A stretch of DNA of 64,000 nucleotides from an uncultured bacterium (GCA_903825105.1 CAIJZI010000005.1:18821-82820); one strand, 5' to 3'. Counted from the stretch's first letter, positions 3,026-41,520 are shown. Numbers and translations are program-made. The notes: generated by a model from the letters alone, not told the origin.

Positions 3026-3439
3026 TCAAACAATTTTCTCTCGAATCTTTTCTGCTATTTCTGAGGCAGAGGTTGGAGTAGGGCAGTCCGTCTCGGGCCA
3101 AAATTCGAATTCGTTTCGCGCGTGGCGTGGAATAATATGGAAGTGGAGGTGGTGAACGACTTGTCCGGCCGCCTCGCCGTGATTTGAGTTGATGTGAACG
3201 CCGTGCGCGCCAACAGCATCGCGTACTGCAGGAGAAATCTTTCGTACGGTTCTCATTATTGCCGAGAGCGTCTCGTCGTCTATGTCAAAAATATTTTCAA
3301 AAGGTTTTTTCGGTATGACGAGTGTGTGCCCGAGAGCTATTGGCTTAATATCAAGAAAAGCGAGCGTCTGAGCATCTTCATACACAATGTCAGCCGGTAT
3401 CTCGCGCTTAACAATCTTCATAAAAACGGTATCCTCCAT
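3026..3439 (-). CDS. HIT family (histidine triad) nucleotide hydrolase
   Basis: 137 aa with HHLHFHIIP histidine-triad motif and N-terminal IVKREIPADIVYED. Confidence 0.85.
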   Translation of the reverse strand: MEDTVFMKIVKREIPADIVYEDAQTLAFLDIKPIALGHTLVIPKKPFENIFDIDDETLSAIMRTVRKISPAVRDAVGAHGVHINSNHGEAAGQVVHHLHFHIIPRHARNEFEFWPETDCPTPTSASEIAEKIREKIV

Positions 3440-3483
3440 TGCATTTAATTCTACAACCTATAACCTACTCTCTACAAGCTCCT

Positions 3484-5202
3484 ATGTTTCCGCTTCACGA
3501 CTCACTTGATAAAAATCTTCGAGAAGAATTGTCAGCATATGACGACTTAACTTCTGCACTCCTCGCGAGGCGTGGCATTTTAAAAAAAGAAGAGGCAGAA
3601 AAATTTTTGAATCCTTCGTACGATCTGCATCTCCACGATCCTTTTTTAATGACAGACATGAGAAAAGCTGCAGAGAGATTCGCCGATGCGATTTTAAAAG
3701 GGGAGAGGATCGCCGTGTGGAGCGACTATGACTGCGACGGTGTCCCGGGCGCCGTTATCCTCCACGATTTTCTTAAAAAGGTTGACGCGAATTTTGAAAT
3801 ATATATTCCGCATCGCCACGATGAAGGGTATGGGATGAATGTTGAGGGGATAGAAAAGCTTGCTTCAAATAAGGTAAAACTTATTGTCACCGTCGATTCT
3901 GGGATCACCGATCACGAGCCCGTCTCGCGTGCAAAAGAATTAGGGATTGATGTGATTATTACCGACCATCATTTACCTAAAGAAACATTGCCTGATGCAT
4001 ATGCCATTGTGAATCCGAATGCCAGAGCAGATGAAAAATATCCCTTCCATGAACTCTGTGGTTCTGGCGTCGCGTGGAAATTGGTGTGTGCTGTTCTTTT
4101 TATTTCTCCAACACTCCGAGAAAAAGCTCCGCTTGGTTGGGAGAAATGGCTACTTGATATGGTCGGGCTCGCGACCATTGCCGACATGGTCTCACTCACA
4201 GGAGAAAATCGCGTGCTCGCTACATATGGATTAAAAGTGCTGCGGAAGTCGCCACGAATTGGATTCCAAAAATTGTGTAAAGTGATGCGTGTGAATCAGC
4301 GCCAAATTACCGAAGATGATGTCGGCTTTATGATCGCGCCGCGCGTGAATGCTGCGAGCCGTATGGGTGACGCGTTTGATGCTTTTAAAATGTTTATCAC
4401 TAACGATGAGGGAGAGGCTGAGCTACTCGCGAGTAAATTAGAAAAAATAAATAAACAAAGAAAGGTTGAAGCGGGCGTCATCACGCGCGCCGTGCATACA
4501 AAGTTAAAAGAAAAAAGTGAAATAAGAAATGTCATTGCACTCGGTGATCCGGAGTGGCGGCCAGCACTTCTCGGGCTCGTCGCGGGAACCATCGCAGACG
4601 AATATGAGCGGCCTGTATTTTTATGGGGAAGGGAAGGCAACAATACTTTTAAAGGGTCGGTGCGGAGCGGGAGTGTGCACGCACTCGAGCTGATGCAGGC
4701 AGCTGAAAAAACTTTTGTTGAATTCGGCGGTCACTCAGCAGCCGGCGGTTTCACTGTGCGAGATGACGCGATATTTTTTCTCGAAGATAAATTAGTTGAA
4801 GCATATGAGCGCCTTCCAAAAAAAGAAGAGGTGGATGATATTTCTAATTATGCTGATGCAGTGATCACTCCTGAAGAAGCGAATGAATCATTTTTAAAAA
4901 AGATTGAGAAGCTGTCTCCATTTGGTATGCAAAATGCGAAGCCCGTGTTCCTGCTCCGCGAGATTGTCGTGAGAGAGATTTCACGCTTTGGAAAAGGGAA
5001 GGAACATTTAAAATTAAAAATCAGTTCGCGAGATAAAAATAATAAAATTGATGCGGTCACCTTTTTTGTAAAAGGGAATATTGCGCGCACCATTGAGACT
5101 ATTCAACCAAACGGCGTCGCGACCATTCTCGCGCATCTCGAGCGCGACACCTTCAGCTATGGCAACCCCGTCCGCTTGCGCCTTTTGGATATCAAACTAT
5201 AG
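3484..5202 (+). CDS. recJ: single-stranded-DNA-specific exonuclease RecJ
   Basis: DHH motifs (DYDCDGV, VDSGITDH, ITDHH) and DHHA1-like C-terminus; track ORF begins at TTG 3439, first ATG at 3484. Confidence 0.85.
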   Translation: MFPLHDSLDKNLREELSAYDDLTSALLARRGILKKEEAEKFLNPSYDLHLHDPFLMTDMRKAAERFADAILKGERIAVWSDYDCDGVPGAVILHDFLKKVDANFEIYIPHRHDEGYGMNVEGIEKLASNKVKLIVTVDSGITDHEPVSRAKELGIDVIITDHHLPKETLPDAYAIVNPNARADEKYPFHELCGSGVAWKLVCAVLFISPTLREKAPLGWEKWLLDMVGLATIADMVSLTGENRVLATYGLKVLRKSPRIGFQKLCKVMRVNQRQITEDDVGFMIAPRVNAASRMGDAFDAFKMFITNDEGEAELLASKLEKINKQRKVEAGVITRAVHTKLKEKSEIRNVIALGDPEWRPALLGLVAGTIADEYERPVFLWGREGNNTFKGSVRSGSVHALELMQAAEKTFVEFGGHSAAGGFTVRDDAIFFLEDKLVEAYERLPKKEEVDDISNYADAVITPEEANESFLKKIEKLSPFGMQNAKPVFLLREIVVREISRFGKGKEHLKLKISSRDKNNKIDAVTFFVKGNIARTIETIQPNGVATILAHLERDTFSYGNPVRLRLLDIKL

Positions 5203-6070: not shown

Positions 6071-7693
6071 TTGAGTTCTTGCTACCATAGTTTCATGAGG
6101 TTTTTGATTTCTGTCGTCCTTGGATTTGCGAGTGGAATATTTTTGCGCTCGATTTTTATTTTTTCTTGGCCGGTCATTTTGTTTTCACTTCTTCTCGCGA
6201 TTTTATTTTTAACAGCTGCGTTTTTAAAATCGCGCCTTGCGTACACGCTTGGCGCGGTTTTTTGTTTGTTCATAGTTTTCGGAATATTGCGCGCGCAGAC
6301 TGCCGACACGCCACTCCCAAAATCTTTTGCGAGCGAATTACATCATCGTGTTTCGTATGAAGGCGTTGTTGTTTCTGATCCTGACATTCGCGATGCGAAT
6401 CAACGCTTTGAAGTGTCTGTTACAAAAAATGATGCGACAACAAAAATTCTTATTTCTACTCTGCGCACAAAAACAATTTCTGTTGGCGATAAAGTAGAGG
6501 TATCTGGAGTTCTTTTGGTTCCACAAAATTTTTCAACTGATGGTGGCCCTCCTTCGCTTGGCTTCGGCGGGACAAGTAGAGTTTTTAATTATGAAAAATA
6601 TTTACAGCGTGACGGTGTGCGATTCATTATCAATTTTGCTTCAGTAAGTGTTTTACAAAAAGCGCCATGGTATTCAATCTCATCTGCGCTCGCAAAAATA
6701 AAACATTTATTTTTAAATGGACTTTCTGCAACACTGCCCGAGCCGTATGCATCGCTCGCTGGCGGTGTCGTGATAGGAGGGAAGACCGGCCTCGGCACTG
6801 ATTTACAAAATGCATTTATAAAAAGTGGGCTGGTGCAGATCGTTGTTCTCTCTGGATACAATGTGATGATTATAGCCGAGTGGGTGATGGCGCTCCTCGC
6901 ACACACGAAACTTTCTCGCCGGTGGAGCTCGGTCGCTGGCGTGCTCGCGATTATTATTTTTGTCGGCATCGCCGGAGCGTCAGCGACCGCGATTCGTGCG
7001 TCACTTATGGCATTCATCGCGCTCTACGCGCGAGCTACAGGGAAGTCATACGCAGCGGGCCGTGCGCTTCTTCTCGCAGTCTTTCTTATGCTTATTTGGA
7101 ATCCACTTTATCTAGCCTATGATCCAGGATTTGGATTATCGGTAGCGGCGACAGCAGGAATTATTTGGCTCGCACCAGTTATTGAATCGTGGCTCGGTGA
7201 GTGGAGAAAGATTTTTCAGAGTATGCCAAGTGCAGCGAAGCGAAACGCTCTGAAAAATTTTTATCCCGAACAAGAGCCTTCTTTTTGGATAAACACAATC
7301 GCGACAACAATCGCTGCACAAATCGCTGTTCTTCCACTTCTGCTTTATGACACCGGCAATCTTTCATTCGTCGCCATTCCAGCAAATGTGCTCACGATGC
7401 CAATGGTCCCACTTGCGATGGGTCTCTCCGCGCTCGCCGGTTTCGCGGGAATTATTTTTTCAAATATTGTTCCGCTTGTTGGAATTATTTTTGCATTCCC
7501 TGCGTATGTCGCGAATGCGTATCTTATTTTCATCGCAGAAAAATCTGCGTCCCTGCCATTCGCAGCATTCACCCTTCCTGCGTTTCCGTTTTGGCTTGTA
7601 CTCGTCGTTTATGCGGCACTTATTTTCATAGCGTCGTCAAAACGCTTTTCGACGACAGACCAGTCCAAGTTTTCAAAAAAGGCGTCAATATAA
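6071..7693 (+). CDS. comEC: ComEC/Rec2-family DNA internalisation membrane protein (membrane competence domain only)
   Basis: 540 aa polytopic membrane protein; N-terminal DUF4131-like OB region and LAGGVVIGGKTGL competence-domain signature; no C-terminal MBL domain in this ORF. Confidence 0.75.
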   Translation: MSSCYHSFMRFLISVVLGFASGIFLRSIFIFSWPVILFSLLLAILFLTAAFLKSRLAYTLGAVFCLFIVFGILRAQTADTPLPKSFASELHHRVSYEGVVVSDPDIRDANQRFEVSVTKNDATTKILISTLRTKTISVGDKVEVSGVLLVPQNFSTDGGPPSLGFGGTSRVFNYEKYLQRDGVRFIINFASVSVLQKAPWYSISSALAKIKHLFLNGLSATLPEPYASLAGGVVIGGKTGLGTDLQNAFIKSGLVQIVVLSGYNVMIIAEWVMALLAHTKLSRRWSSVAGVLAIIIFVGIAGASATAIRASLMAFIALYARATGKSYAAGRALLLAVFLMLIWNPLYLAYDPGFGLSVAATAGIIWLAPVIESWLGEWRKIFQSMPSAAKRNALKNFYPEQEPSFWINTIATTIAAQIAVLPLLLYDTGNLSFVAIPANVLTMPMVPLAMGLSALAGFAGIIFSNIVPLVGIIFAFPAYVANAYLIFIAEKSASLPFAAFTLPAFPFWLVLVVYAALIFIASSKRFSTTDQSKFSKKASI

Positions 7694-8145
7694 TTTTTCT
7701 TTTCTGCGGGAACATAATCAACCATATACGCATGCTCCCAAAGATCGAGGGCGAGGATAATCGGCAGTCCAGAAAGTTGACCGAGCTCGTGGTCATTCAC
7801 GAAAAGAGTATGCGTCGTATTCATCACTTTGTCATAATAGACAACAACCCAACCGGTGCCACGCGTACCAGCCACTTCTTTTATTTTTGTAATTAATTCT
7901 TGTCTCTCTGTTTTTGGGGCTACAGCCCCGCTCTCAAGCTCTTCAAAATAATATTCATGCATACGCATCCCGTCGAACTCAAAAGCAAATCGATTTGCAC
8001 TATTATTTTCTAACAATAAATTTATATTTTTTACATATCCTTCATAGAGCGCGAGATGCACCTTAATCTGTTCTTCTGAAATTCCTTTTAAAACCGGCAG
8101 ATTGAATGTTTTTGGTATGTAGGTCATAGGTTGTAAATTTACCAT
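7609..8145 (-). CDS. sod: Fe/Mn superoxide dismutase (short form)
   Basis: DLWEHAY motif plus conserved His/Asp ligand positions (IKVH, MRMHEYYF); C-terminal overlap of about 85 nt with convergent comEC ORF. Confidence 0.7.
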   Translation of the reverse strand: MVNLQPMTYIPKTFNLPVLKGISEEQIKVHLALYEGYVKNINLLLENNSANRFAFEFDGMRMHEYYFEELESGAVAPKTERQELITKIKEVAGTRGTGWVVVYYDKVMNTTHTLFVNDHELGQLSGLPIILALDLWEHAYMVDYVPAEKKNYIDAFFENLDWSVVEKRFDDAMKISAA

Positions 8146-8156
8146 ATAATTTATAG

Positions 8157-8666
8157 ATGCAGCGATTACCGAAAATTTTCTATACGGTCCTTATTTTAAT
8201 ACTCATCGCGGCAAACATTTGTGTCTACCAAACTATTTTTACTCCTCACACGCTTCAAATCTCTGTACTTAATGTTGGAAAGGGGAATTCAGTTCTTATT
8301 CGCACGCCAAATAAAAAGACTATCCTTATAGACACCGGCCCAGACGCGAGCATCTTACGCGCGCTTGGCACGACACTCCCCGAATGGCAGCGAACTATCG
8401 ACATTATTATTCTCACGGGAACCAAATCAAACTTCACGGGCGGTCTGCCCGAGGTTCAGAATAAATATCACACACCAACTCATATTTATTTTGGCACTCC
8501 AGCTTTCCCATATGGCTCACAAATTTCTCTTGATTCTGTTTCTATAAAAATAATTGCCCCCGCGACTCTCACCATCTCTTTCGGCTCTGCTTCACTCCAA
8601 ATCTCATCCTCCACACCAAAGGGCGTGTATGCACCAGACGGGAAGGGAATTATTAAAAAGAATTAG
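8157..8666 (+). CDS. membrane-anchored metallo-beta-lactamase-fold protein resembling the ComEC C-terminal domain, metal-binding motif degenerate
   Basis: LNVGKGNSVLIRTP..ILIDTGPD matches ComEC MBL start (LDVGQGDA); expected HxHxDH position reads LTGTKSNFTGG. Confidence 0.5.
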   Translation: MQRLPKIFYTVLILILIAANICVYQTIFTPHTLQISVLNVGKGNSVLIRTPNKKTILIDTGPDASILRALGTTLPEWQRTIDIIILTGTKSNFTGGLPEVQNKYHTPTHIYFGTPAFPYGSQISLDSVSIKIIAPATLTISFGSASLQISSSTPKGVYAPDGKGIIKKN

Positions 8667-9017: not shown

Positions 9018-9668
9018 ATGACCACCGCCATTACCCTCATTATCCTTATTCTTTCCGTCATTATGCACGAAGTGGCGCACGGCTATGCCGCGAATTCGCT
9101 TGGCGACCCAACAGCCCGTCTCGCTGGCCGTTTGACTCTCAATCCGATCCCACACATTGATCTCATGGGCTCTATTATTATTCCTGGCCTCCTTGTTTTA
9201 ACGGGCTCGCCAATGCTCTTCGGCTGGGCGAAGCCGGTGCAGTATAATCCATACAATCTTCGCAATCATCGCTGGGGAGAATTTTTTGTTGCTGTCGCTG
9301 GAGCGTGTACAAATATCTCTCTTGCTATTATTTTTGGACTTATTGTTCGTTTTGGCTCGACTGCACTCGCCACAGGTGGCTCTACTATATTCTCGCCAAC
9401 GGCTATTTCTCTCGCTGCGACAATTGCCTTTATAAATCTTTTCCTCGGCATATTTAATCTCATCCCTTTTCCACCGCTCGACGGCTTCACCGCGCTTCGC
9501 TCGGCACTCCCGTGGCGCTTTTCTATCAGTTTTGCTAAATTCGAACACTCTATTCGTAGTATGGGCGTTATTTCTCTTATTCTTTTCTTATTCATCTTCT
9601 CATTTATCTTATCTGGGCCATTCTTCGCTTTTGTTTCTTGGATATTCAGATTTATAACTGGTGTATAG
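9018..9668 (+). CDS. site-2 protease family zinc metalloprotease (peptidase M50)
   Basis: HEVAHG (HExxH) in first TM segment and NLIPFPPLDG motif; ORF trimmed to ATG 9018. Confidence 0.75.
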   Translation: MTTAITLIILILSVIMHEVAHGYAANSLGDPTARLAGRLTLNPIPHIDLMGSIIIPGLLVLTGSPMLFGWAKPVQYNPYNLRNHRWGEFFVAVAGACTNISLAIIFGLIVRFGSTALATGGSTIFSPTAISLAATIAFINLFLGIFNLIPFPPLDGFTALRSALPWRFSISFAKFEHSIRSMGVISLILFLFIFSFILSGPFFAFVSWIFRFITGV

Positions 9669-9737
9669 ATACACCGGATTGCAATTTTAAGAAAATATTA
9701 TATTGTCTATATTAGATACTTGATTGGAGGTGGCCCG

Positions 9738-9911
9738 ATGCGCTTGTGCAAGATGTGTGGAAGGCACATTTTTATCGAAATAGTAGAAAAAAGTGGTAAA
9801 AAGCATTTGCTCAAAGAAGAAAATGGGCACGATCTCTGTAAAAGATGTTGGCGCGCGCTAAGAAACAAAACACGAGATAAGCCAGAAGAAACCAGACTAG
9901 AAAACCCTTGA
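9738..9911 (+). CDS. small zinc-ribbon protein (CxxC...CxxC)
   Basis: 57 aa from ATG 9738 preceded by GGAGGTG RBS; CKMCGRH...CKRCWR; followed by strong terminator. Confidence 0.4.
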   Translation: MRLCKMCGRHIFIEIVEKSGKKHLLKEENGHDLCKRCWRALRNKTRDKPEETRLENP

Positions 9912-9958
9912 GAAGCCGCACTTACTATCGCGGGCACTTCTCAAGGGTTTTTATTTTT
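9903..9958 (+). terminator. intrinsic terminator (aacccttgagaag...cttctcaagggtt + TTTTTATTTTT)
   Basis: 13-bp stem with T-rich tail. Confidence 0.7.
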
Positions 9959-10038
9959 AATAAAAATATCACGCATATTTTGTTACTGCGTACACACATA
10001 CTCGACAGCACGACGAGGCGTCGACTGCTATACTATAA

Positions 10039-10458
10039 GTGATGGAGTATCAGGTACCTCAATTTATTGAAGTTGAAAACAAAATTGTCGGGCCATTGAC
10101 CTTGAGACAATTTATTTACCTAGCTGGTGGGGCAGGGCTGTGTGTTCTGTTCTTTGTTTATTTACCGATAATTTTTGCCCTTTTGTTTTCGGCGCTCGCT
10201 GTTGCCTTTGCGGTCGCACTCTCTTTTTATAAGGTAAATGGAAAGCCTTTTATCGAAGTGCTCGAAGCTGGATTCAACTATTACACTGGCGCAAAACTCT
10301 TTCTCTGGAAAAGAAGAGATCCCGAGGCACAAAAAAATACACTGGCAAAAGTAGAGCCAGAAGTACAGAAAACAGAGAGAATAACCCGAGGGAAGCTCTC
10401 TGAGCTCGCGTGGTCTCTCGATGTCTCTTCTGGTGGCAAGCAGGAAGACCAAAAATAA
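10039..10458 (+). CDS. PrgI/VirB3-like small membrane protein of T4SS-like operon
   Basis: N-terminal PQFIEVENKIVGPLTLRQFIYL followed by two TM helices, as in PrgI-family proteins that precede VirB4 ATPases. Confidence 0.5.
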   Translation: MMEYQVPQFIEVENKIVGPLTLRQFIYLAGGAGLCVLFFVYLPIIFALLFSALAVAFAVALSFYKVNGKPFIEVLEAGFNYYTGAKLFLWKRRDPEAQKNTLAKVEPEVQKTERITRGKLSELAWSLDVSSGGKQEDQK

Positions 10459-10459
10459 T

Positions 10460-11095
10460 ATGCCTACACCAAAATCAAATGCGACACAGCAGTTCGTCCC
10501 CGTTAAAGAGATAAAAAACGGCGTCATTATTCTTAAAGATGGTACTTACCGAGGAGTGCTTATCTGTTCAGCGATCAACTTCGGACTTAAGTCTGCGGAC
10601 GAACAGCACGCTATAGTTCTTGGTTTTCAGAATTTTTTAAATATGCTCGATTTTTCTATACAGATAGTGGTGAACTCACGGAAAATGGATTTGCGACCCT
10701 ATCTCGCTCTTCTAGCAGGGAAGGCAGTAGATCAGAAGACGGAGCTTATGCGCATTCAACTCAGAGAATATACCGAGTTCATTCGCTCATTCGCGGAGCA
10801 GTCAAACATAATGACAAAATCGTTTTACATCATCGTACCGTATTCTCCACACGCCTCTACCGCACACACTATGAACTTTCTTAAACGAGAGAGTGATGCT
10901 GTTAAAAATGCTGAGGCAACTACCTCTTTCGGAGAAAGTCGCGCACAACTCGAACAACGAATGTCTCTTATTTCTGGAGGGCTATCAAGAACGGGGGTTC
11001 GCGCGGTGCCGCTTAATACAGAAGAAGTGGTCGAGCTTCTATACCGGTCATTTAATCCAGGAGAATTGGAGAATCCTATTAGACTAGATGTATGA
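10460..11095 (+). CDS. VirB4 N-terminal-domain-like protein (separate ORF)
   Basis: FVPVKEIKNGVIILKDGTYRGVLICSAINFGLKSADEQ resembles CagE/TrbE/VirB4 N-terminal domain of Gram-positive-type VirB4s; ATG 10460 immediately after upstream stop. Confidence 0.4.
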   Translation: MPTPKSNATQQFVPVKEIKNGVIILKDGTYRGVLICSAINFGLKSADEQHAIVLGFQNFLNMLDFSIQIVVNSRKMDLRPYLALLAGKAVDQKTELMRIQLREYTEFIRSFAEQSNIMTKSFYIIVPYSPHASTAHTMNFLKRESDAVKNAEATTSFGESRAQLEQRMSLISGGLSRTGVRAVPLNTEEVVELLYRSFNPGELENPIRLDV

Positions 11096-11125
11096 GATTT
11101 ACACTTTTAAATATTTAAATATCTT

Positions 11126-12943
11126 ATGGCATTACTCGATTTCCTAAATAATAAAAAAGAAAAAGAACGGGAAATAATTCCTGTGCTTCCAAAAGATATT
11201 TATAAGCAGGGAACACTAGACTTGGTAGACACTATAGCGCCAACAGCGCTTCTCGTTGGCTCGCGCGAATTACAACTGGGAGAAAAGTTTGTGCGCGCTT
11301 TTTATACCATTTCATATCCACGATTTCTTTCTGATAGTTGGTTCTCGCCGATTATAAATCTCGACAAGGTTCTCGACGCGTCTATATTCATTCACCCCGT
11401 AGAGACAGAGCAGGCGCTTCGTGGATTCCAGAAAAAAGTCGCCGAAGTACAAAGTCAAATCAGCGAGCGTGAATCAAAAGGCCTTGTGCGCGACCCAATG
11501 CTCGACACAGCATACCAAGATCTCGAGAATTTAAGAAACGACCTCCAACAGGCTCAAGAAAAGCTCTTTGATGTCGGACTCTATTTGTCACTTTATGGTG
11601 ATACGAAAGAAGAGATTGATAAAACAGAAGGGGACATACGCGGCATTCTCGACGCAAAATTGGTGTATACGAAGCCAGCACTCTTCCAACAAGAGCAGGG
11701 ATTCCGTTCCTGCCTCCCGCTCGGAACCGATGAACTTTTGGTCAATTCTAAACTAAATTCGTCGCCACTCTCTTCACTTTTCCCCTTCGTCTCTTTCGAT
11801 CTCACGAGCGACCGTGGCATTTTGTATGGTATAAACAGACACAACTCTTCGCTTGTTCTCTTCGATCGTTTCTCGCTCGAAAATTATAATTCAGTCATAT
11901 TCGCCAAATCAGGTTCTGGTAAGTCGTATGCGACGAAGCTCGAAATCTTGCGTTCGCTTATGTTTGGTACCGATGTTATTGTCATCGACCCAGAACGAGA
12001 ATATGACCAGCTCGCTGAATCGACAGGGGGTCGCTCATTTCACATCTCTCTTTCTTCAGAACATCACATCAATCCGTTTGACCTGCCTCCAGTAAAAGAG
12101 GATGAAGACCCGAAAGATATTCTGCGTTCAAACATCATCGCTCTCGTAGGGCTCTTCCGTATTATGCTTGGCGGTCTCACACCAGAAGAAGATTCTATTA
12201 TCGATCGTGCGATTAGCGAGACCTACGCACTGAAAGACATCACTGGAGACGCTGACTTTACTGGTGCCGAATCGCCGCTACTTTCAGATTTTGAACAAGT
12301 TCTTTCGGGCATGGAAGGGAGCGAGTCGCTCGTCGAGAGACTTTCGAAGTATACGCGCGGGAGCTGGTCAGGCTTTATGAATCAGCCCACCAATATCGAC
12401 CTCAAACAACAATTCGAAATTTTCTCGGTACGCGATATGGAGGATGAGCTTAAGCCAGTGGCGATGTATATCATCACACACTTCATCTGGAATGCGATAC
12501 GCAGAGAGGTTAAGAAGCGCCTGCTGGTTATCGACGAGGCGTGGTGGATGATGAAGAGCGAGGATACCGCGAGCTTCTTGTATTCACTCGCGAAGCGTGG
12601 GCGTAAATATTACATTGGGGTCTGCACCATAACACAAGAAGTTGAAGATTTCGTTAATTCACAATATGGGAGAGCGATATTGAATAATTCATCACTCCAA
12701 CTCCTATTGAAACAGTCTCCGACTTCTATTGATGCACTCCAAAATACTTTTAAATTAACCGATGAGGAAAAATATCTCTTGCTCGAAGCTGGAGTAGGGG
12801 AGGGGCTCTTCTTCGCCGGACTAAAACATGTCGCTATTAAAATCGTCGCCAGTTACACCGAAGATCAGATTATTACTTCAGACCCGTCGCAGCTTCTCGC
12901 GATAAAGGAAGAGAAGGATCGCCATGCAGCAGAACAAAAGTAG
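11126..12943 (+). CDS. VirB4/TraC-family conjugal-transfer-type ATPase (ATPase domain)
   Basis: Walker A AKSGSGKSY (~11911), Walker B LLVIDEAWWMM with VirB4-hallmark DEAW (12532..12543); 605 aa. Confidence 0.75.
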   Translation: MALLDFLNNKKEKEREIIPVLPKDIYKQGTLDLVDTIAPTALLVGSRELQLGEKFVRAFYTISYPRFLSDSWFSPIINLDKVLDASIFIHPVETEQALRGFQKKVAEVQSQISERESKGLVRDPMLDTAYQDLENLRNDLQQAQEKLFDVGLYLSLYGDTKEEIDKTEGDIRGILDAKLVYTKPALFQQEQGFRSCLPLGTDELLVNSKLNSSPLSSLFPFVSFDLTSDRGILYGINRHNSSLVLFDRFSLENYNSVIFAKSGSGKSYATKLEILRSLMFGTDVIVIDPEREYDQLAESTGGRSFHISLSSEHHINPFDLPPVKEDEDPKDILRSNIIALVGLFRIMLGGLTPEEDSIIDRAISETYALKDITGDADFTGAESPLLSDFEQVLSGMEGSESLVERLSKYTRGSWSGFMNQPTNIDLKQQFEIFSVRDMEDELKPVAMYIITHFIWNAIRREVKKRLLVIDEAWWMMKSEDTASFLYSLAKRGRKYYIGVCTITQEVEDFVNSQYGRAILNNSSLQLLLKQSPTSIDALQNTFKLTDEEKYLLLEAGVGEGLFFAGLKHVAIKIVASYTEDQIITSDPSQLLAIKEEKDRHAAEQK

Positions 12944-13589
12944 CCCCAAGTTACCGCAAAACAGAAATCGCGGCACGGTACCCAGAAGGAATAGTGGTTC
13001 TAGCCCTCCACCGACGATGACTTGGGGTAAAGCGTCGCCGGTTTTGGTAGTGGCAGTTATCTTTGATTTGGCACGAAACTTTTTCGAATGGTTTTGGCTT
13101 TTTGGGCCGGCGCTCTTCGCTGTCGGGTGTACCGCAGGGATGAATAGTTATATAGGAACGACCATCACACAGCTTTCTGGTAAGGCTGTCGCGGTAGGCT
13201 GTATGGCTCTCGCTGGAGTGGCTGGATATTTTGGCGTTGAAGTTACCGAGGGATTTGGCATTATGATGGCGGCATTTGTTGGGTTCACTGGTTTTTTAAC
13301 TTTGCTTCTTTTGATTTCAATGACCAATTCTCGTTTGTTTAAAGTAAATCCGCGCGGGATGTTTTCTTTTGTGGGAAGTTTTGGCGTATGCGAAGTTCCT
13401 TTTGTTGGAGCAATCCCAGCTTTTTCGATCAGTCTTTATTTGTTGTACCGAAGACAGATAAAAATAGAAAAAGCAGCACTCAAAGCATGGAAGAAAGAAC
13501 AGGAAGAAAATAAACAGAATGAAAGAGCTGGTCAAATCACAGAGTTTATACAAATGCGCGATGCCCAACTAGCTTATGGCGAGATATAA
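12924..13589 (+). CDS. polytopic membrane protein of T4SS-like operon (possible VirB6-like component)
   Basis: 4-5 predicted TM helices; overlaps VirB4 stop by 20 nt. Confidence 0.35.
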   Translation: MQQNKSSPKLPQNRNRGTVPRRNSGSSPPPTMTWGKASPVLVVAVIFDLARNFFEWFWLFGPALFAVGCTAGMNSYIGTTITQLSGKAVAVGCMALAGVAGYFGVEVTEGFGIMMAAFVGFTGFLTLLLLISMTNSRLFKVNPRGMFSFVGSFGVCEVPFVGAIPAFSISLYLLYRRQIKIEKAALKAWKKEQEENKQNERAGQITEFIQMRDAQLAYGEI

Positions 13590-14601
13590 TGAATCTATGC
13601 GTTTTATTTTTCCACTCGCTTTAACTCTTCTCATTCTGCCTTCTGTAGCATTCGCTCAATTTTTAGGAGGAGATGCACTTGATGAGAGCACTGCCTTCTC
13701 TGCTTCGATAGACCCACAGTATCCAGCGCCGTATACCAATGCGACACTTTCTGTTCTTTCAGCATCTCTTGACCTCGCGAATGCGACAATGAAAGTTTCT
13801 GTAAATAAAAAACAAATCTATTCTGGAAGCGTCCAAGATCTTTCTATTCGTCTTGGCGGTGCAGGGAATATGACAAAAATAGATGTGACGATTTCATCTT
13901 CTGGGAAAAGCTATACCCAAAACCTCTCTGTTCAACCACAAGATGTGGTGCTCGTAGCCGAGCCACTATCTTCTGCTCCACCACTCTACCCAGGGAAGAC
14001 ACTGGTGCCTCTCGAAGGGAGTGTGCGTGTTGTCGCTATGGCAAATCTCCGAGATACAAAAGGGAAAGCCATCGATCCTGCGACCCTCTCATACTCTTGG
14101 ACGGTTGATGAAACGAGTCTCTCAAATGCATCTGGGATTGGGAAAAGTGCGATTATTGTAGATTCCCCATTTAAGTACCGCTCGACAGATGTATCCGTGT
14201 CGATAAAGAGCCAAGACGGCTCACTTGTTGGCGGAGACTCTTTGTCGCTCGTTGCCTCTGACCCAGTCATCCGTGTGTATGAAAACGATCCACTCCTCGG
14301 TATTGTCTTTAACCGCGCCATTTCAGGAAATTATAAAATCACTTCATCTGAAGATTCGCTCTATGCCGCTCCATTCTCTATGCCAACCTCTTCTGGACTA
14401 CCGGTTATTCAATGGTTTTTAAATGGTGACCTCGCACAAACCGGAAAGACAATAACACTGCGCCCAACAGGAAGCGGGCAGGGGAGCGCTTCTCTCTCGC
14501 TCATCGCGTCTTCAGGAGAATCAACACGAGCGACTCAAGAATTCTCGCTCTCTTTTGGCGCGATACAGAGTAGCGTGCTTAATAAATTATTTGGACTATG
14601 A
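13576..14601 (+). CDS. secreted protein with signal peptide, T4SS-like operon
   Basis: MRFIFPLALTLLILPSVAFA signal peptide (alt start 13597); Ser/Thr-rich beta-type sequence. Confidence 0.4.
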   Translation: MARYNESMRFIFPLALTLLILPSVAFAQFLGGDALDESTAFSASIDPQYPAPYTNATLSVLSASLDLANATMKVSVNKKQIYSGSVQDLSIRLGGAGNMTKIDVTISSSGKSYTQNLSVQPQDVVLVAEPLSSAPPLYPGKTLVPLEGSVRVVAMANLRDTKGKAIDPATLSYSWTVDETSLSNASGIGKSAIIVDSPFKYRSTDVSVSIKSQDGSLVGGDSLSLVASDPVIRVYENDPLLGIVFNRAISGNYKITSSEDSLYAAPFSMPTSSGLPVIQWFLNGDLAQTGKTITLRPTGSGQGSASLSLIASSGESTRATQEFSLSFGAIQSSVLNKLFGL

Positions 14602-15869
14602 AAAAAATTATTTTTCTATTCTTGATTCTTTCTTTATCTCTTTCTCTCCCGCATTTTGCATTTGCACAACAAGTTGGAGAAGTTGGGGATACTTGTAAAA
14701 CACCAAACGATTGTTCTGTGGATTATTGTGTTAACAATGTTTGTAGTGCCGGAGAAGCGGGAGATGTTTGCAATGGAAATGGTGATTGCTCTGGAGATCT
14801 AACTTGTAAAAATAAAGTCTGTGCTAGTACAAGTTCCTCAAATACGCAATCAACAACACAAGCGAAAACAAATGGATTCACCGCGCTCGCGCCAATACCA
14901 GGCCTCACAGATAAATCGAGTACCGCTTTGGTAAATTCAGACAGTCTCGCAAACTTCTTTAACAATCTTTATAAATATCTTATCGGCCTCGCCGCGATCT
15001 TGGCGATTATACAGATAATGTGGGCGGGCTTTGATATGGCTTGGGAACACAAGGATTCGGTGAGTGCGATAACTGATGATAAAGGGAGGATTAAAAACGC
15101 CATTTTTGGACTTGTTCTTATCCTCTCTCCGGCCGTTATCTTCTCTATCATTAATCCAAGTATTCTGAACTTATCTATCGGCCTCCAACCGCTTGATATG
15201 TCGAAGACTACTATGGATTCAAGTGGATCTGGAACAGGTAATGATCTTTTGACACAGGACGGCAAACCTCCAATTACACAAACTAAATCAACCTCAGGAT
15301 GCGCGACAGCTACAAATGGTCCTCTGAGTGGAACTTTTTATACAACATGTACAGCTACGGATGAAAAAACCGCATCTAGCGAAGCCGCATCCTATGTGGC
15401 AGCTAATTGTCCTACAAGCGGCACGAAAACTGGAGGGGCGTATGCTGCTGTTGGATCTGATGAGAAGACAACAATGGACTCAAATAATAATATTAAAAAA
15501 TATTATTCTACATATTCTGCAAAAGCTTGGTGTAGCCAAATTATTAAAATAACTGGCGTATACCAAAAAAGTTTGATGAATTCTGAAATTTCTAATCTAA
15601 TAGGTTATTTCAACGCATCAGATGCGATTGGAAATATAAATCCTGATAAAGTGTGTGGTAATTGGTCTTTATCTGGCAGTTTTAAGGTGGATAATTTTTC
15701 ATCATCAGCTGGATTGGATAATTCAGGCGGGTATGGTTCTGACAATCTTGGTCCATGTCCTAGTGACGATTCTTTCCAGAAATGGTTTCTTGCACTTAAA
15801 GGGAAAAATGATCTATATGTACCAACATGCGGGGACACAAGCTTCTATTGCGTAATGCCTATTAATTAA
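14598..15869 (+). CDS. Cys-rich secreted protein containing a VirB2/TrbC-like hydrophobic helical hairpin
   Basis: signal peptide, Cys-rich module (CKTPNDCSVDYCVNNVC...), then LIGLAAILAIIQIMWAGFDMAW...IFGLVLILSPAVIFSII two-helix hairpin; ATGA overlap with upstream gene. Confidence 0.4.
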   Translation: MKKIIFLFLILSLSLSLPHFAFAQQVGEVGDTCKTPNDCSVDYCVNNVCSAGEAGDVCNGNGDCSGDLTCKNKVCASTSSSNTQSTTQAKTNGFTALAPIPGLTDKSSTALVNSDSLANFFNNLYKYLIGLAAILAIIQIMWAGFDMAWEHKDSVSAITDDKGRIKNAIFGLVLILSPAVIFSIINPSILNLSIGLQPLDMSKTTMDSSGSGTGNDLLTQDGKPPITQTKSTSGCATATNGPLSGTFYTTCTATDEKTASSEAASYVAANCPTSGTKTGGAYAAVGSDEKTTMDSNNNIKKYYSTYSAKAWCSQIIKITGVYQKSLMNSEISNLIGYFNASDAIGNINPDKVCGNWSLSGSFKVDNFSSSAGLDNSGGYGSDNLGPCPSDDSFQKWFLALKGKNDLYVPTCGDTSFYCVMPIN

Positions 15870-15870
15870 C

Positions 15871-17103
15871 ATGAAACGCTTCCTTCTCATCCTCATAACA
15901 CTCATCATCCTCATCGGAGTTGGGGTATTTATTTATTTCTACTTCTTCGCCAATAAAGCGACGGTTGTCGTTGCTCCTCCTGGTACGACAACACTCCCGA
16001 TCTCTGGAAATAATGGAACGACACAATCTGGTGGTGGAAATAAAAACCCAAATTCATCAGCTTCGAGTATCCCAGTGTCAGTCGCGCCGAGACTCGTCGA
16101 GATAAATGCCGGGCCGGTCGTGAATGGGGAAGTGGTGCTCGATGTTTCTATTAAAAATGCCACAACCTCTGCCTCAACTACTCCCGTAATAAGCTCGGAT
16201 GTTATCGCTAAATATATCGAGCGCGAAAGTGGCAATGTTTTTTCCTATTCAGTAAAAGACAATAAGAATACGCGCGTGAGTAATAAGACACTCCCCGGGA
16301 TTCAGTCAGCGACTTGGCTGCCAAATGGATTAACTGCATTTGTTCGTTACCTATCAGGAAATGATTTTTCTACCATAAACACCTATGCTTTCATGGCAGA
16401 TGGTTCTAACGGATTCTTTTTACAACAAAATCTCTCTAGTATCGATATCTCTTCGACGAGTGTCCTTATGCTCGCTTCTGGAGTAAATGGCTCATCAGCT
16501 TCTCTCGCGAACACCGACGGCACCAAAGCCTCAAATGTGTTCACAACACCGCTTTCACAGCTTCGTGTGTCATTCGCTGGTAAAAAATATCTCGCCTACA
16601 CCAAACCGTCTTCTGGGATAGATGGATATGCATTTATTGTTGATTCGACAGGCCACTTCTCGAGAATCGCTGGGCCCCGTAGCGGTCTTACCGCTCTCGC
16701 GAGCCCTTCTGGCGCGTGGGTACTCTTAAGTTACCCTCTCAACAACGACCTCCAAATGGAGCTCGTGAACACCTCAACAGGAGAGATTGTCTCTCTTCCG
16801 GTCGCGACTATCGCTGACAAGTGTGTATGGACGAATGATGAATCTTCTATTTATTGTGGCATCCCGACAAATGTTTCGAGTGATGCCTCGTATCCTGATG
16901 ATTGGTATCAAGGGGCGTTCCAATTTTCAGACCGAATCTGGAAGATAGATGTTTCTGGCAGATTTGCTCAACTCACACTCGACTTTTCAAGTGCGACAAA
17001 TGGAGTTTCTCTCGACGCTGTCGCTCTCTCGGTTGACCAAAATAATACCGAACTTGTTTTTATGAACAAAAACGACAACTCTCTTTGGGGCTATCAGCTC
17101 TAG
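15871..17103 (+). CDS. membrane-anchored extracytoplasmic protein, last gene of T4SS-like operon
   Basis: N-terminal TM anchor then 380 aa Ser/Thr-rich domain; no family recognised. Confidence 0.35.
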   Translation: MKRFLLILITLIILIGVGVFIYFYFFANKATVVVAPPGTTTLPISGNNGTTQSGGGNKNPNSSASSIPVSVAPRLVEINAGPVVNGEVVLDVSIKNATTSASTTPVISSDVIAKYIERESGNVFSYSVKDNKNTRVSNKTLPGIQSATWLPNGLTAFVRYLSGNDFSTINTYAFMADGSNGFFLQQNLSSIDISSTSVLMLASGVNGSSASLANTDGTKASNVFTTPLSQLRVSFAGKKYLAYTKPSSGIDGYAFIVDSTGHFSRIAGPRSGLTALASPSGAWVLLSYPLNNDLQMELVNTSTGEIVSLPVATIADKCVWTNDESSIYCGIPTNVSSDASYPDDWYQGAFQFSDRIWKIDVSGRFAQLTLDFSSATNGVSLDAVALSVDQNNTELVFMNKNDNSLWGYQL

Positions 17104-17106
17104 AGA

Positions 17107-17847
17107 TTACACCTTCTCACTTACACCTTCTTTTACTCCTCTCCTAACATAGAGCTCTTGTAGTGTGCCGACGATATTTGTTGTGATGAAGTAGAGCGCC
17201 ACCGCTCCTGAGGTTGTGTACGAAATAACAGCAATAAGAAAGGGGAAGACATACTTTAATTGCATTCCCATCATCTGTTGGAATCCTGCCTGCATTCCGC
17301 TTCCGTCTCCTGATGGCTTCATGGTCCCCGAGAGGGCGAAATGTGCTTGAAGGAATTGTGTTACGCCAGCCAAAATCGCCAACAAAATACTTTTCCCTGC
17401 GACAGAAATTATTCCTAAAAATTCTAGAGAAATGGTGTGTGGAATTGGTGTTATCGCGTACAATCTCGCTGTGTTTATAACAGAAAATGGTTCATAGCAA
17501 AAAACCCAATAGAGTGCGAGGAGGACTGGAATTTGAATAAACACCGTTAGAATACTCGCGAAGGGATTCACTTTTGCATCTTTATATAAAGCGAGTGTTT
17601 CTATAGCTTCTTTTTCTTTATCGCCCTTGTGCTTTTCTTTTAATTCTTTTAATTTAGGTTCCAGGACTTTCATCGCGCGCTGTGTTCTGACTGCCGACAA
17701 AGAGAAGGGGAGGAGAATCAAACGAATGATGATAGTGATGAGAATAACCGCGACACCCACATCGCCTTTTGGAATAAAAGCGACAAGCGCTACGAGAGCG
17801 TTATATATCGGATTATAAAAAACGGCGTGAAAAAAAGCTGAAATCAC
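17107..17847 (-). CDS. yidC: membrane protein insertase YidC (short form)
   Basis: 246 aa, YNPIYNALV...IRLILLPF...KVNPF motifs of YidC/Oxa1; in rpmH-rnpA-yidC cluster. Confidence 0.85.
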   Translation of the reverse strand: MISAFFHAVFYNPIYNALVALVAFIPKGDVGVAVILITIIIRLILLPFSLSAVRTQRAMKVLEPKLKELKEKHKGDKEKEAIETLALYKDAKVNPFASILTVFIQIPVLLALYWVFCYEPFSVINTARLYAITPIPHTISLEFLGIISVAGKSILLAILAGVTQFLQAHFALSGTMKPSGDGSGMQAGFQQMMGMQLKYVFPFLIAVISYTTSGAVALYFITTNIVGTLQELYVRRGVKEGVSEKV

Positions 17848-17865
17848 AGGTGGTTGGATTAATTT

Positions 17866-18168
17866 TTATATTTTAGAAATAAGATCTATGAGTTCTTTTT
17901 CTATATCCTGATAGTGTACACCCTCTAGTTTAGAACGCGAAAAAACAATAAGCGATGGTGGTAATTTCTGTTTTTTGAGAGCTCCGATGATGCGCCGCTT
18001 TATTTTATGCCTGTCGACAGAGAGCTTGGCTACCTTTTTGGGCACCACAACAGCATATCCTGCCACCTCTTTAGAAACAGTGGCGGTAAAGTGGGTAGAA
18101 GAGAATCTGCGCCCTTTTAGTACGAGAGGGAATGTTGCTCGCGTCAGCCTATAACTGCGCTTAAACAC
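17866..18168 (-). CDS. rnpA: ribonuclease P protein component
   Basis: 100 aa basic protein, position between rpmH and yidC, RnpA-like KLSVDRHKIKRR. Confidence 0.85.
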   Translation of the reverse strand: MFKRSYRLTRATFPLVLKGRRFSSTHFTATVSKEVAGYAVVVPKKVAKLSVDRHKIKRRIIGALKKQKLPPSLIVFSRSKLEGVHYQDIEKELIDLISKI

Positions 18169-18172
18169 GGGT

Positions 18173-18310
18173 TTAGACGGCTAAACTGGCCCTTCCTGCT
18201 CTTCGTCGCCCTTTTATAATCTTACGGCCAGAACTGGTTGCCTTTCGAGCAAGAAATCCATGCGTCGTTGCGCGCTTCTTTTTCTTTGGTTGGTAGGTTC
18301 TTTTTGGCAT
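18173..18310 (-). CDS. rpmH: 50S ribosomal protein L34
   Basis: [45 protein letters not shown]; track ORF trimmed to ATG at 18310. Confidence 0.85.
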
Positions 18311-18401
18311 ATTAAATAGGTGTTTATCCACACATAGTACCAGATTCTGCACAAAACACCATTTTGTCCTAGTTTTATGAAAAGAGTATACTCTGGGCAC
18401 G
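18311..18401. promoter_or_regulatory. oriC / divergent promoter region between rpmH and dnaA with perfect DnaA box TTATCCACA at 18324..18332
   Basis: consensus 9-mer read directly; classic rpmH|dnaA location. Confidence 0.6.
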
Positions 18402-19754
18402 ATGGACAAGAGAAATTTACAGGAACTTTGGGAACATGTTTTGACTCAAGTTGAACTTTCTATATCTCCTGCGAATTTTAATACTTGGTTTTGTAACAGT
18501 TTCATTGTGAAGGTTACTGAAGATGGGGTAGTCCACATTGGTGTTCCAAGTCAGTTCTTCAAGGATTGGTATATGAAAAAGTTTCATACGCTCTTATTGA
18601 AAATCCTCCGTGACATTTCTTATGAGTTCAGAAACATTGAATACGCAATAGTGAAAGATGAGCGGAGAAAAGTTTTAAAAGAAACAAAGAAAGTTTCTGG
18701 CGCGATGGAGCTTCCGTTAAATGAATTTTATATTAATAAGAGCGATAACCTAAATCCGCGCTATACCTTCGATACTTTTGTTGTTGGGTCTTTCAACGAG
18801 CTTGCCTATACCGCTGCTCAAGCCGCACTCAAACGCCCTGGCATAACCTATAACCCACTTTTTATTTATGGAGATACTGGGAGAGGGAAGACGCATTTAA
18901 TACAGGCGATTGGTAATCAATTTAAAAAACAGTTCAACAGCCAAAAAGTTTTTTATCTTACTTCTGAAAAGTTTGCTATTGATTATACGGACTCTGTTCA
19001 AGCCGGAACGGCGAATCGTTTTAAAGACAAATATCGTCAGTACGATCTTCTTATTATGGATGATGTGCAGTTTCTTTCTAAAAAAGAAAAGACCCAAGAG
19101 GAACTCTTTCATTTGTTCAATGCTTTATACGATACCAATAAGCAAATTATATTCTCATCTGATCGTTCTCCTGTCGCCATTCCAGATATCGCAGAGCGCT
19201 TAAAAGGGAGACTTGCTAGTGGAATGACAGTTGATATTAGTGAGCCAGACACTGAATCTCGTATGGCGATTATTCAAAAAAAGGCGGCATTACACGGGTT
19301 TATGCTCTCAAATGATGTTGTTGAGTATGTGGCGACCTCTATAACAGGATCTATTCGTGAACTTGAAGGGATGATAAATAATATTGTCTGCCACGCCCAA
19401 GCGAAAGGGTATGCGCCAGATATTGCTGAAGTGAGACAGTCGCTTCGATCCTTCACTCGTCCACAAAAAACAATTTCGATTAAAAATGTTGTGGATAAAG
19501 TTGCTGAATTTTATGGAATTGATGAAGAGAGTATTTATGAAAAGACGCGACGAAGGGAAGTGGTGCGTCCACGCCAGGTGATTATGTATCTTCTTCGAGA
19601 AGATTTTAATATTTCATATCCAACCATTGGTTCAAAACTTGGCGGACGCGATCATACAACCGTTATCCACTCTTGTGAAAAAATAAAGCGTGAAATAGTT
19701 GGGGATGCAGATCTATCTAAAGATATACAGAGTATAAGAGCCCTACTTGTATGA
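18402..19754 (+). CDS. dnaA: chromosomal replication initiator DnaA
   Basis: 450 aa, AAA+ Walker [12 protein letters not shown]-terminal DNA-binding domain. Confidence 0.9.
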
Positions 19755-19877: not shown

Positions 19878-20978
19878 ATGAATATTTCAATAAATAAAAA
19901 ATTATTCTCAGAGGCTGTGCATATCGTCTCACGATTCTCTGATAAGAAAAATACAACACTTCCAGCACTCTCTTCTATTCTTATTATTGCGAGTGATGGG
20001 GAGATAAAAATGAGAGCTACAAACCTAGAAATAGGAGCGGATTTAAAAATTAATGGAAATATAAAAAGTGAAGGTGTTGTCGCTGTACCATCCTCGCTTT
20101 TACAACAAATAGCGAATTCTTTGTCAGGAGAAGGGGATATAACACTCGAACACACAGGAAATATTGTTTCGCTTACGAGCGGATCAGGAAAAAGTTCAAT
20201 AAAAACAACACTATATGAAGACTTCCCATCAATTCCTTTCCCAGAAAATACAAAAGGAAGAATGGTTATACAGGGTGTAATTCTAAAAAATATATTCACT
20301 TCAGTGGCGTCATGTGCCTCTTTGTCTACTATTCGTCCAGAACTCGCTAGTGTGTATATGACGATAGAAGGAGGTGCTTTAACAGCTGTTGCTACAGATT
20401 CTTTCAGACTTGTGGAGAAAAAAGTTCCTCTTGTTAACAAAGGTACTCAAGGAAAATTCCTTATTCCTGCAAAAAATGCTCTTGAAATAGCACAAATCCT
20501 ACCTGATGAAGAAATCATTGTGTCTTTTGACGAGCATCAATGCGCTTTTGTTAGTCCAAAAGGAATGTTCGTTTCGCGATTAACAAATGCAATCTATCCA
20601 GACTACAGACAAATCATTCCAAAAGAATCAGTGGCAGAAGCTGTGGTGTTACGAAAAGATTTTGAAACAGCTCTCAAACAAACAACCATCTTTTCTGACT
20701 CATTCCAAAAAATTCGTTTAGGTTTCGATCCAAAAAAGAATCAACTCTCTTTCTTTGCGAAGAATAATGATGTGGGAGAATCGTCCGAAACAATACAAGC
20801 GCGTATTTCTGGTGGTGCTATTGAATTATCTTTTAATCATAAATACCTAAACACCGCATTATCAATGTCATTAAATGATAGTATTTCTCTATCCTCAGCT
20901 GGAATTGGGCGACCACTTATAATCAAAGGGGTAGGGGACTCATCGTTGCTTTATCTCGTTTCCCCAATGAATCAGTAG
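19878..20978 (+). CDS. dnaN: DNA polymerase III beta sliding clamp
   Basis: 366 aa three-domain clamp, follows dnaA. Confidence 0.9.
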   Translation: MNISINKKLFSEAVHIVSRFSDKKNTTLPALSSILIIASDGEIKMRATNLEIGADLKINGNIKSEGVVAVPSSLLQQIANSLSGEGDITLEHTGNIVSLTSGSGKSSIKTTLYEDFPSIPFPENTKGRMVIQGVILKNIFTSVASCASLSTIRPELASVYMTIEGGALTAVATDSFRLVEKKVPLVNKGTQGKFLIPAKNALEIAQILPDEEIIVSFDEHQCAFVSPKGMFVSRLTNAIYPDYRQIIPKESVAEAVVLRKDFETALKQTTIFSDSFQKIRLGFDPKKNQLSFFAKNNDVGESSETIQARISGGAIELSFNHKYLNTALSMSLNDSISLSSAGIGRPLIIKGVGDSSLLYLVSPMNQ

Positions 20979-25852: not shown

Positions 25853-25890
25853 AGGCTAGGAGATGATTTTGTCTCCTAGCCTTTCTTTTT
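25853..25890. terminator. hairpin aggctaggagat-gatttt-gtctcctagcct + T-run between convergent small ORF and pilB
   Basis: 12-bp stem. Confidence 0.6.
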
Positions 25891-41517: not shown

Positions 41518-41520
41518 AAT

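Follow-up and report, generated by a model that had tools for sequence, protein, structure and literature searches.

Type IV secretion systems (T4SS) of the Patescibacteria (candidate phyla radiation, CPR) are the closest described relatives of the locus considered here, a seven-gene cluster at positions 10,039 to 17,103 of a 64,000-nucleotide stretch of DNA from an uncultured bacterium (GCA_903825105.1, CAIJZI010000005.1:18821-82820), the whole of which we refer to as the window. According to PMC12102498 (Quinonero-Coronel et al. 2025), which surveyed 3,035 Patescibacteria genomes, patescibacterial VirB4 proteins form a monophyletic clade nested in MPF_FATA, with a TrsD-like protein, homologous to the VirB4 N-terminus, encoded beside virB4 and with PrgI/VirB3 and VirB2-like pilins nearby; VirB6, VirB8 and VirB1 are scarce, relaxases are almost absent and VirD4-like genes usually lie far from virB4. 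The same study places the T4SS near dnaA, dnaN, rnpA and rpmH in Paceibacteria and Microgenomatia. In Southlakia epibionticum (Saccharibacteria), PMC10633639 (Wang et al. 2023) reports from transposon sequencing (Tn-seq) that the cluster SEML1_0006-0019 is essential for growth on the host, the essential genes including those for PrgI, a 293-aa hypothetical protein, a 612-aa VirB4 and pilins, and that it carries neither a relaxase nor a coupling protein. Deletion of comEC in Southlakia abolishes competence, not viability (PMC12857230, a 2025 review). The system encoded in the window is already known: every element of an earlier reading of this DNA, hereafter the original prediction, is in print in these three sources.

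More distant counterparts are carried on plasmids of Bacillota. In the staphylococcal pGO1/pSK41 trs (tra) region, of the pGO1 subclass of MPF_FATA, a pilin-like TrsB is followed by VirB3-like TrsC, TrsD (227 aa), VirB4-like TrsE (672 aa) and the membrane protein TrsF; since TrsD is separate from TrsE, VirB4 consists of two polypeptides there too. Two megaplasmids typed as non-mobilizable, those of Pontibacillus (NZ_CP062975) and B. thuringiensis Bt407 (NC_018878), encode PrgI and a VirB4 of 621 or 661 aa that is immediately preceded by a stand-alone N-domain protein of 274 or 328 aa; the Pontibacillus cluster also has a pilin-like gene. The Prg/Pcf system of Enterococcus faecalis pCF10 likewise has PrgI followed by a CD1110-family VirB4 (PrgJ), but as a single 796-aa chain. 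On its 898-kb replicon, the Pontibacillus cluster (L086, 351801-361354) comprises the pilin-like gene, a 779-aa protein, the TrsD-like protein and VirB4, together with a large peptidoglycan peptidase, and has chemotaxis and flagellar genes on its flanks; here, too, the machinery may serve a purpose other than conjugation.

We consider it likely that the cluster in the window is a chromosomal, non-conjugative patescibacterial T4SS in a Paceibacteria/Kaiserbacteria-like genome, in which VirB4 would drive the assembly of a pilus or channel for host contact. It comprises seven consecutive plus-strand open reading frames (ORFs) that overlap or lie 1-30 nt apart and are directly followed by yidC-rnpA-rpmH-dnaA-dnaN (Table 1), which upholds the original prediction of a seven-gene operon beside the origin locus. 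Families were searched in Pfam, NCBIfam (curated cut-offs) and PDB sequences, profiles were compared by hhalign and structures were searched by Foldseek. Hidden Markov models support T4SS identity for four of the seven genes (ORF1, ORF2, ORF3 and ORF6); the complete lack of T4SS-family matches, named in advance as the outcome that would count against this identity, did not occur. Our comparison set contained 80 related species-level genomes, with 85 loci for synteny and 82 loci in which both VirB4 parts were visible. Across the 80 genomes, the order PrgI, VirB4 N-terminal part, VirB4 C-terminal part, (transmembrane protein), ORF5, pilin, ORF7, yidC (minus strand), dnaA, dnaN is kept wherever the contig reaches, and the origin-proximal order from yidC to dnaN recurs in 58-66 related loci, with Pfam support in relative L004. 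Median identity to the window falls from cytoplasmic to exposed parts (VirB4 C-terminal part 81%, N-terminal part 60%, PrgI 51%, pilin 42%, ORF4 40%, ORF7 39% and ORF5 36%).

The locus thus shares with the Patescibacteria-clade T4SS a VirB4 of the MPF_FATA-related clade, with its closest relatives inside Patescibacteria (80 species), adjacent TrsD-like and PrgI/VirB3 genes, a VirB2-like pilin within the cluster, no relaxase or type IV coupling protein (T4CP) nearby, and a position beside the yidC-to-dnaN genes like that given for Paceibacteria in PMC12102498. With Southlakia it shares the triplet of PrgI, a protein of ~290 aa and a VirB4 of ~610 aa. We place VirB4 in this clade from profile scores and identities. 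The system descends from the conjugation machinery of single-membrane bacteria (MPF_FATA) and most resembles the pGO1-type order TrsC-TrsD-TrsE-TrsF, at very low sequence identity to pGO1. No plasmid VirB4 is more than 35% identical to ORF3, compared with 72-90% within the clade; the two megaplasmids are the closest plasmid relatives of ORF2 and ORF3 (28-34% identity), and ORF3 aligns with PrgJ residues 242-772 at 27% identity.

The motor is encoded in two parts. ORF3, a 605-aa VirB4 ATPase with Walker A (GSGKS) and Walker B (DEAW) motifs, matches conju_CD1110 (VirB4-like conjugal transfer ATPase, CD1110 family) over positions 179-733 of 752 (1e-112), at 377.7 bits against an NCBIfam equivalog cut-off of 325. 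It also matches Pfam TraG P-loop, AAA_10 and DUF87, and its residues 229-585 match the VirB4 C-terminal domain of PDB 4ag5 (3.7e-45) as well as TrwK (5.6e-8). ORF3 holds the remainder of the VirB4 N-terminal domain and the C-terminal motor domain. ORF2 (211 aa, no transmembrane segment) matches positions 1-167 of the same CD1110 model (3.5e-8), VirB4_plasma, the mycoplasma VirB4 model (1e-10), and TrsD/TraD (1e-3); pGO1 TrsD aligns to the ORF2 profile over 166 columns (E = 9e-5), and a public collection lists ORF2 under PF26593 TraC-like in its precomputed Pfam assignments. ORF2 had no match in our local Pfam copy or, by sequence, in PDB, and its profile was not significant against full-length PrgJ, though NCBIfam VirB4 profiles match it. 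By these matches ORF2 is a TrsD-like protein, equivalent to the initial ~170-200 residues of the VirB4 N-terminal domain in detached form. When joined in silico, ORF2 and ORF3 align in a single stretch on both CD1110 (2-733 of 752, 405 bits) and TIGR00929 VirB4_CagE (3-725 of 792), indicating that they are the two collinear halves of a single VirB4 that is divided within a linker; the full VirB4 domain set, N-terminal domain plus C-terminal RecA-like ATPase, is found in the two jointly and in neither alone.

At the junction, the TGA of ORF2 (11093-11095) is followed after 12 nt by TAA (11108-11110) and, 15 nt later, by the ATG of ORF3 at 11126, all in one frame, as the original prediction had described. 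The shared frame and the mere 30 nt between the parts are what speaks for an assembly or sequencing artefact that interrupts a continuous gene, a concern voiced along with that description, and the two in-frame stops speak for a decaying remnant of an integrated conjugative element (ICE) whose VirB4 was broken by nonsense mutations and whose relaxase and coupling protein were lost. Comparative data leave the artefact with practically no chance of being correct. In all 82 related loci the N-terminal part ends in a stop (TAA in 59, TAG in 12 and TGA in 11) and the C-terminal part begins with ATG at the equivalent residue; two independent ENA assemblies (L001 and L002) have the 211-aa protein unchanged and the next ORF separate from it, with a junction in L001 identical to that of the window; and continuity would require the removal of two stops and an AT-rich spacer. 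Relative frames 0, 1 and 2 occur in 29, 30 and 23 of the 82 loci, so the shared frame in this window is coincidental and without significance. Because a stop-ATG arrangement is conserved in all frames, assembly error, recent pseudogenisation and readthrough or frameshifting are excluded; programmed readthrough or frameshifting at the junction was considered and ruled out, since every relative frame and each of the three stop codons occurs among relatives.

A decaying ICE fares little better, and we regard it as effectively refuted, with only a very slim chance of being right. Besides the stop and ATG that every relative properly has at this site, in all three relative frames, identity to the window proteins across the 80 species is 45-79% for ORF2 and 72-90% for ORF3, which points to strong purifying selection on both VirB4 parts, and standalone TrsD-like proteins exist in thousands. 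Homologues of ORF2 numbered 3685, the best 120 all being ~211 aa, 75-83% identical and from Kaiserbacteria, Paceibacteria and related groups. A search among 1.84 billion cluster representatives gave 2531 matches to ORF2, and among the best 150 there was one fused full-length VirB4 of 797 aa, present in three Candidatus Colwellbacteria metagenome-assembled genomes and 43% identical to ORF2 and 55% to ORF3. This fused form provides a Rosetta-stone indication that the ORF2 and ORF3 chains act as one protein. The split is ancient, fixed and functional, not an error or a pseudogene.

The 30-nt spacer between ORF2 and ORF3 is less widespread than the split itself: among relatives it occurs only in L004/L005, L008 and L015, most gaps being 1-6 nt (median 3 nt). 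It contains a promoter-like TTTACA-16-TATCTT and is a candidate internal promoter or small insertion. In four distant relatives (L054, L064, L083 and L084), the TrsD-like gene and VirB4 have an insertion of 167-486 nt between them, showing that the two genes can be physically apart.

Upstream of the VirB4 parts, in 80 of the 85 loci, lies the PrgI gene, represented in the window by ORF1, which matches Pfam PrgI (3.3e-10, 40.8 bits against a cut-off of 27) and by hydropathy forms a two-helix membrane hairpin (aa ~22-67) followed by a charged tail, predicted to be cytoplasmic. Downstream, ORF4 is a fast-evolving polytopic membrane protein (39% mean column identity) of ~190 aa, for which hydropathy predicts 3-5 helices ahead of a charged C-terminal tail; its slot is empty in ~10 of 76 loci. 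ORF4 sits where pGO1 has TrsF, but hhalign comparison of its profile with pGO1 TrsF, pGO1 TrsL (TrbL family) and pCF10 PrgH gave probabilities below 1%, and neither ORF4 nor any of 44 proteins at the same position matched Pfam VirB6/TrbL. ORF4 may be a VirB6/TrsF-type channel protein by position only, with no detectable homology. Of the VirB6 and VirB2 matches that had been put forward for checking, only the latter, in ORF6, was recovered.

ORF6 was predicted to be a Cys-rich protein with a VirB2/TrbC-like hairpin, and it does match both T4SS_pilin (6e-9) and TrbC/VirB2 (4e-8) above the Pfam cut-off, over aa 103-186. Its plan comprises a signal peptide, an 8-Cys knot-like domain (aa 25-95), a two-helix hairpin (aa ~96-199) and an 8-Cys C-terminal domain of 224 aa. 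At 423 aa, with domains on both sides of the hairpin, it compares with about 100 aa for the small canonical VirB2 pilin; proteins at the same slot elsewhere range from 140 to 474 aa. For the hairpin, 59 related loci have a conserved counterpart of 53-70% identity. The domains on its N- and C-terminal sides had no homologue in any of 80 other species, even where VirB4 was up to 90% identical, and matched only the same organism. Between related species the outer domains turn over completely, the hairpin alone being conserved. In VirB2-type pili (VirB2/TraA pili) both termini face outward, and the variable Cys-rich domains of ORF6 would therefore coat the filament. ORF6 is the sole pilin-like ORF, no second pilin gene having been found in the window, so the locus differs from the Patescibacteria-clade T4SS in having one pilin gene with large lineage-specific ectodomains instead of an array of short divergent pilins.

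The pilin gene is flanked by two further extracytoplasmic proteins, both called secreted in the original prediction. This holds for ORF5, which has a signal peptide and three tandem immunoglobulin (Ig)-like beta-sandwich domains in its AlphaFold model (predicted local distance difference test, pLDDT, 76.6), an invariant C-terminal FGL and the same position in 78 of 85 loci, but ORF7 is better called membrane-anchored on account of its N-terminal transmembrane helix. In ORF7 a disordered, Ser/Thr/Gly/Asn-rich linker (aa ~27-73) leads to a seven-bladed beta-propeller with a conserved Cys318/Cys329 pair and a YPDDWYQG loop; it is present in 67 of 85 loci. Neither protein belongs to a Pfam or NCBIfam family, and fold searches returned only generic Ig/fibronectin type III tandems for ORF5 (Foldseek) and generic beta-propellers for ORF7, with no T4SS component among them. 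Neither fold, Ig-like or propeller, is NTF2-like, i.e. there is no VirB8-like match. Conserved synteny suggests that ORF5 and ORF7 are conserved extracytoplasmic partners of the T4SS in this clade. Such partners are not mentioned in the consulted sections of PMC12102498 and PMC10633639, and no ORF5- or ORF7-like genes are annotated in the Bacillota megaplasmids.

A scan of 37 ORFs, the larger ORFs of the 64-kb window, revealed no domain of a relaxase, a VirD4/TcpA-type coupling protein or an integrase, in keeping with the original prediction; relaxase and VirD4-type coupling protein are the conjugative MPF_FATA features that pGO1 and pCF10 possess. From these missing genes we infer a non-conjugative system, a secretion or uptake apparatus rather than a conjugative element as had been proposed, in agreement with what PMC12102498 and PMC10633639 report. 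The conjugative plasmid pGO1 has a relaxase, VirD4-like TrsK, the CHAP hydrolase TrsG, TrbL/VirB6-like TrsL, a topoisomerase and SSB, none of which is in this operon. Unlike the locus described here, pCF10 has PrgH (VirB6-like), the hydrolase PrgK, PrgL (VirB8-like), the coupling protein PcfC, the relaxase PcfG and LPXTG adhesins, and has no VirB2-like pilin, whereas the Bacillota clusters are plasmid-borne and have large peptidoglycan hydrolases and very large membrane proteins beside VirB4. Compared with the Patescibacteria-clade T4SS, too, this operon is without a VirB1-like hydrolase, no such domain being found in ORF1-7 by Pfam and NCBIfam, and without a recognisable VirB6. That relaxase, T4CP, VirB1, VirB6 and VirB8 were all missing from the scanned ORFs also favours the decayed ICE, against which stand the fixed synteny with housekeeping genes, the lack of an integrase or flanking tRNA, a G+C content of 0.43-0.46 in the cluster that equals its flanks, and the essentiality of the homologues in Southlakia (PMC10633639).

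VirB4-based machines without a relaxase also include DNA-uptake systems such as Helicobacter ComB and archaeal Ced, and a machine of this kind, in which external or host DNA would enter by the pilus or channel and ComEC would move it across the membrane, is an alternative that we regard as improbable. The lack of relaxase and T4CP is shared with ComB; ComEC and RecJ are encoded 2-6 kb upstream of the cluster, in an order kept in close relatives; and comF, recG and radA lie near the T4SS in class ABY1 (PMC12102498). The more distant loci, however, have lost the linkage to ComEC although their T4SS is still found beside yidC and dnaA. In Southlakia, deletion of comEC spares viability (PMC12857230), whereas the T4SS is essential (PMC10633639), which argues that the essential role of the T4SS is not ComEC-linked uptake; competence there depends on type IV pili (T4P), and the window has its own PilB and PilM genes. 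Weak partial matches of ORF3 to CedB/CedD (1.2e-9) fall well below the cut-off (37 bits against 700), those to CedB covering only the Walker B region. ComB, unlike this cluster, has the outer-membrane core proteins ComB7-10, and Ced uses CedA and CedB; no ComB- or CedA-like protein was found in ORF1-7 (Pfam, NCBIfam).

Some features of the genes just mentioned can be recorded here. ComEC in the window is without a metallo-beta-lactamase (MBL) domain, and a separate 169-aa ORF after it has a weak MBL-like match just under the Pfam cut-off; a minus-strand SOD-like gene lies between the two. In relative L004 (6329-8322), the 169-aa gene stands directly after ComEC. The T4P genes comprise a PilB-type ATPase and, elsewhere in the window, PilM with two small ORFs without a family, indicating that the genome has a T4P system separate from the T4SS.

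The non-conjugative T4SS would most likely serve to assemble, by means of VirB4, a pilus or channel where the cell meets its host. Drawing on knowledge of VirB3, VirB4 and VirB2, we propose that PrgI/VirB3 (ORF1) would anchor the VirB4 motor to the membrane, the motor being two polypeptides, TrsD-like ORF2 and the ATPase ORF3, equal to one VirB4. The motor would pull the VirB2-like pilin (ORF6) out of the membrane and polymerise it, perhaps with the help of ORF4, so that the surface of the pilus or conduit would display the fast-changing Cys-rich ectodomains of ORF6, with ORF5 and membrane-tethered ORF7 as putative envelope, wall or surface partners. The structure may be used at host-cell contact for protein delivery or other exchange, not for relaxase-dependent DNA transfer.

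Several points weigh against this interpretation. To our knowledge, the Paceibacteria clade has yielded no observation of a substrate, effector or pilus, and no demonstration of function in any of its systems. No VirB6, VirB8 or VirB1 homologue was identified in the operon by Pfam and NCBIfam, nor, for VirB6, by profile comparison, and the genome could encode a VirD4-like protein beyond the 64-kb window. The folds of ORF5 and ORF7 are generic and no proof of a role in the T4SS, conserved synteny alone tying them to it. We infer co-transcription of ORF1-7 from their spacing; a promoter and terminator consensus scan of 9600-18500 returned sites no more numerous than in shuffles, and no operon promoter was found.

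Tentatively, and with some doubt, we suggest that in Paceibacteria a lineage-specific outer module may have taken the place of the channel, hydrolase and adhesin components that the monoderm T4SS had ancestrally. The module would be made of ORF5, ORF7 and a single giant pilin, whose conserved VirB2 hairpin lies between Cys-rich ectodomains swapped wholesale between species with VirB4 identities up to about 90%. If so, the pilus surface itself would determine host recognition and thereby host range, and its motor would be the obligate two-chain VirB4. Much of bacterial diversity belongs to the Patescibacteria, which depend on host cells, and the T4SS is one of few machines whose essential role in this way of life has been shown (Saccharibacteria). 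The window adds nothing new in kind and offers a clean, well-delimited Paceibacteria example, with modest additions, namely quantitative proof of a fixed ancient split, ORF5 and ORF7 as conserved partners, a negative VirB6 test and the turnover of the pilin outer domains, that may help to choose targets for structural or host-range studies.

The limits of the operon and of its genes can be placed more closely. On the 5' side, a small upstream ORF has as its intrinsic terminator a strong hairpin with a U-run, which is also the boundary of the T4SS operon. On the 3' side, the stops of ORF7 and convergent yidC are 3 nt apart (17103-17107), too close for a terminator to fit between these transcription units. 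The probable start of ORF1 is the ATG at 10042 (10042-10458), gene callers giving 138 aa. For ORF4 the start is probably 13017, at a conserved MTW motif (13017-13589), as in the 190-aa call, a start at 12924 being possible; that of ORF5 is probably 13597 (13597-14601), because M8 and R9 are invariant.

Table 1. Coordinates of the T4SS cluster and of other features of the window, counted from its first letter
Feature	Position	Strand	Remarks
ORF1	10039-10458	+	as first read
ORF2	10460-11095	+	1-nt gap after ORF1
Spacer	11096-11125	+	30 nt, AT-rich, holds in-frame TAA
ORF3	11126-12943	+	30-nt gap after ORF2
ORF4	12924-13589	+	as first read; 20-nt overlap with ORF3
ORF5	13576-14601	+	as first read; 14-nt overlap with ORF4
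ORF6	14598-15869	+	ATGA overlap with ORF5
ORF7	15871-17103	+	1-nt gap after ORF6; N-terminal transmembrane anchor, linker, propeller
Hairpin + U-run	9900-9959	+	-29.2 kcal/mol, z = -7.3, 0/200 shuffles fold as well
Small upstream ORF	9720-9911
yidC	17107-17847	-	ORF translation
rnpA	17866-18168	-	ORF translation
rpmH	within 18173-18409	-	ORF translation
dnaA	18402-19754	+	ORF translation
dnaN	19878-20978	+	ORF translation
RecJ	3439-5202
ComEC	6071-7693		540 aa; DUF4131 + Competence
SOD-like gene	7609-8145	-
ORF after ComEC	8157-8666		169 aa
PilB-type ATPase	25889-27559	-
ORF with lamin-tail domain	32048-32974	-	308 aa
PilM + two small ORFs	40408-42641	+
ThyX-like ORF	51554-53008	+	484 aa; Thy1 domain at aa 57-254
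ORF, no family match	55610-57346	+	578 aa
Isoleucyl-tRNA-synthetase-like ORF	57882-61259	+	1125 aa; His_Phos_1 at aa 496-651 (2.5e-27)
ORF with DUF11 repeat	61806-63662	+	618 aa; weak family match

The remainder of the window is ordinary chromosome. Before the cluster lie genes for TIM, PGK, RecJ, ComEC, SOD, L28 and an M50 peptidase, and after yidC-rnpA-rpmH and dnaA-dnaN come PBP1, RuvC/RuvB, PilB, PolA, PilM, tRNAs and aminoacyl-tRNA synthetases; an Rfam scan of the window returned only eight tRNAs. The ORFs with a lamin-tail domain, with no family match and with a DUF11 repeat are possible surface proteins. In the ThyX-like ORF, the Thy1 domain covers only part of the protein, leaving a long C-terminal part without an assigned family. 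The isoleucyl-tRNA-synthetase-like ORF carries its His_Phos_1 domain between class I segments at aa 13-488 and 713-839, an unusual insertion.

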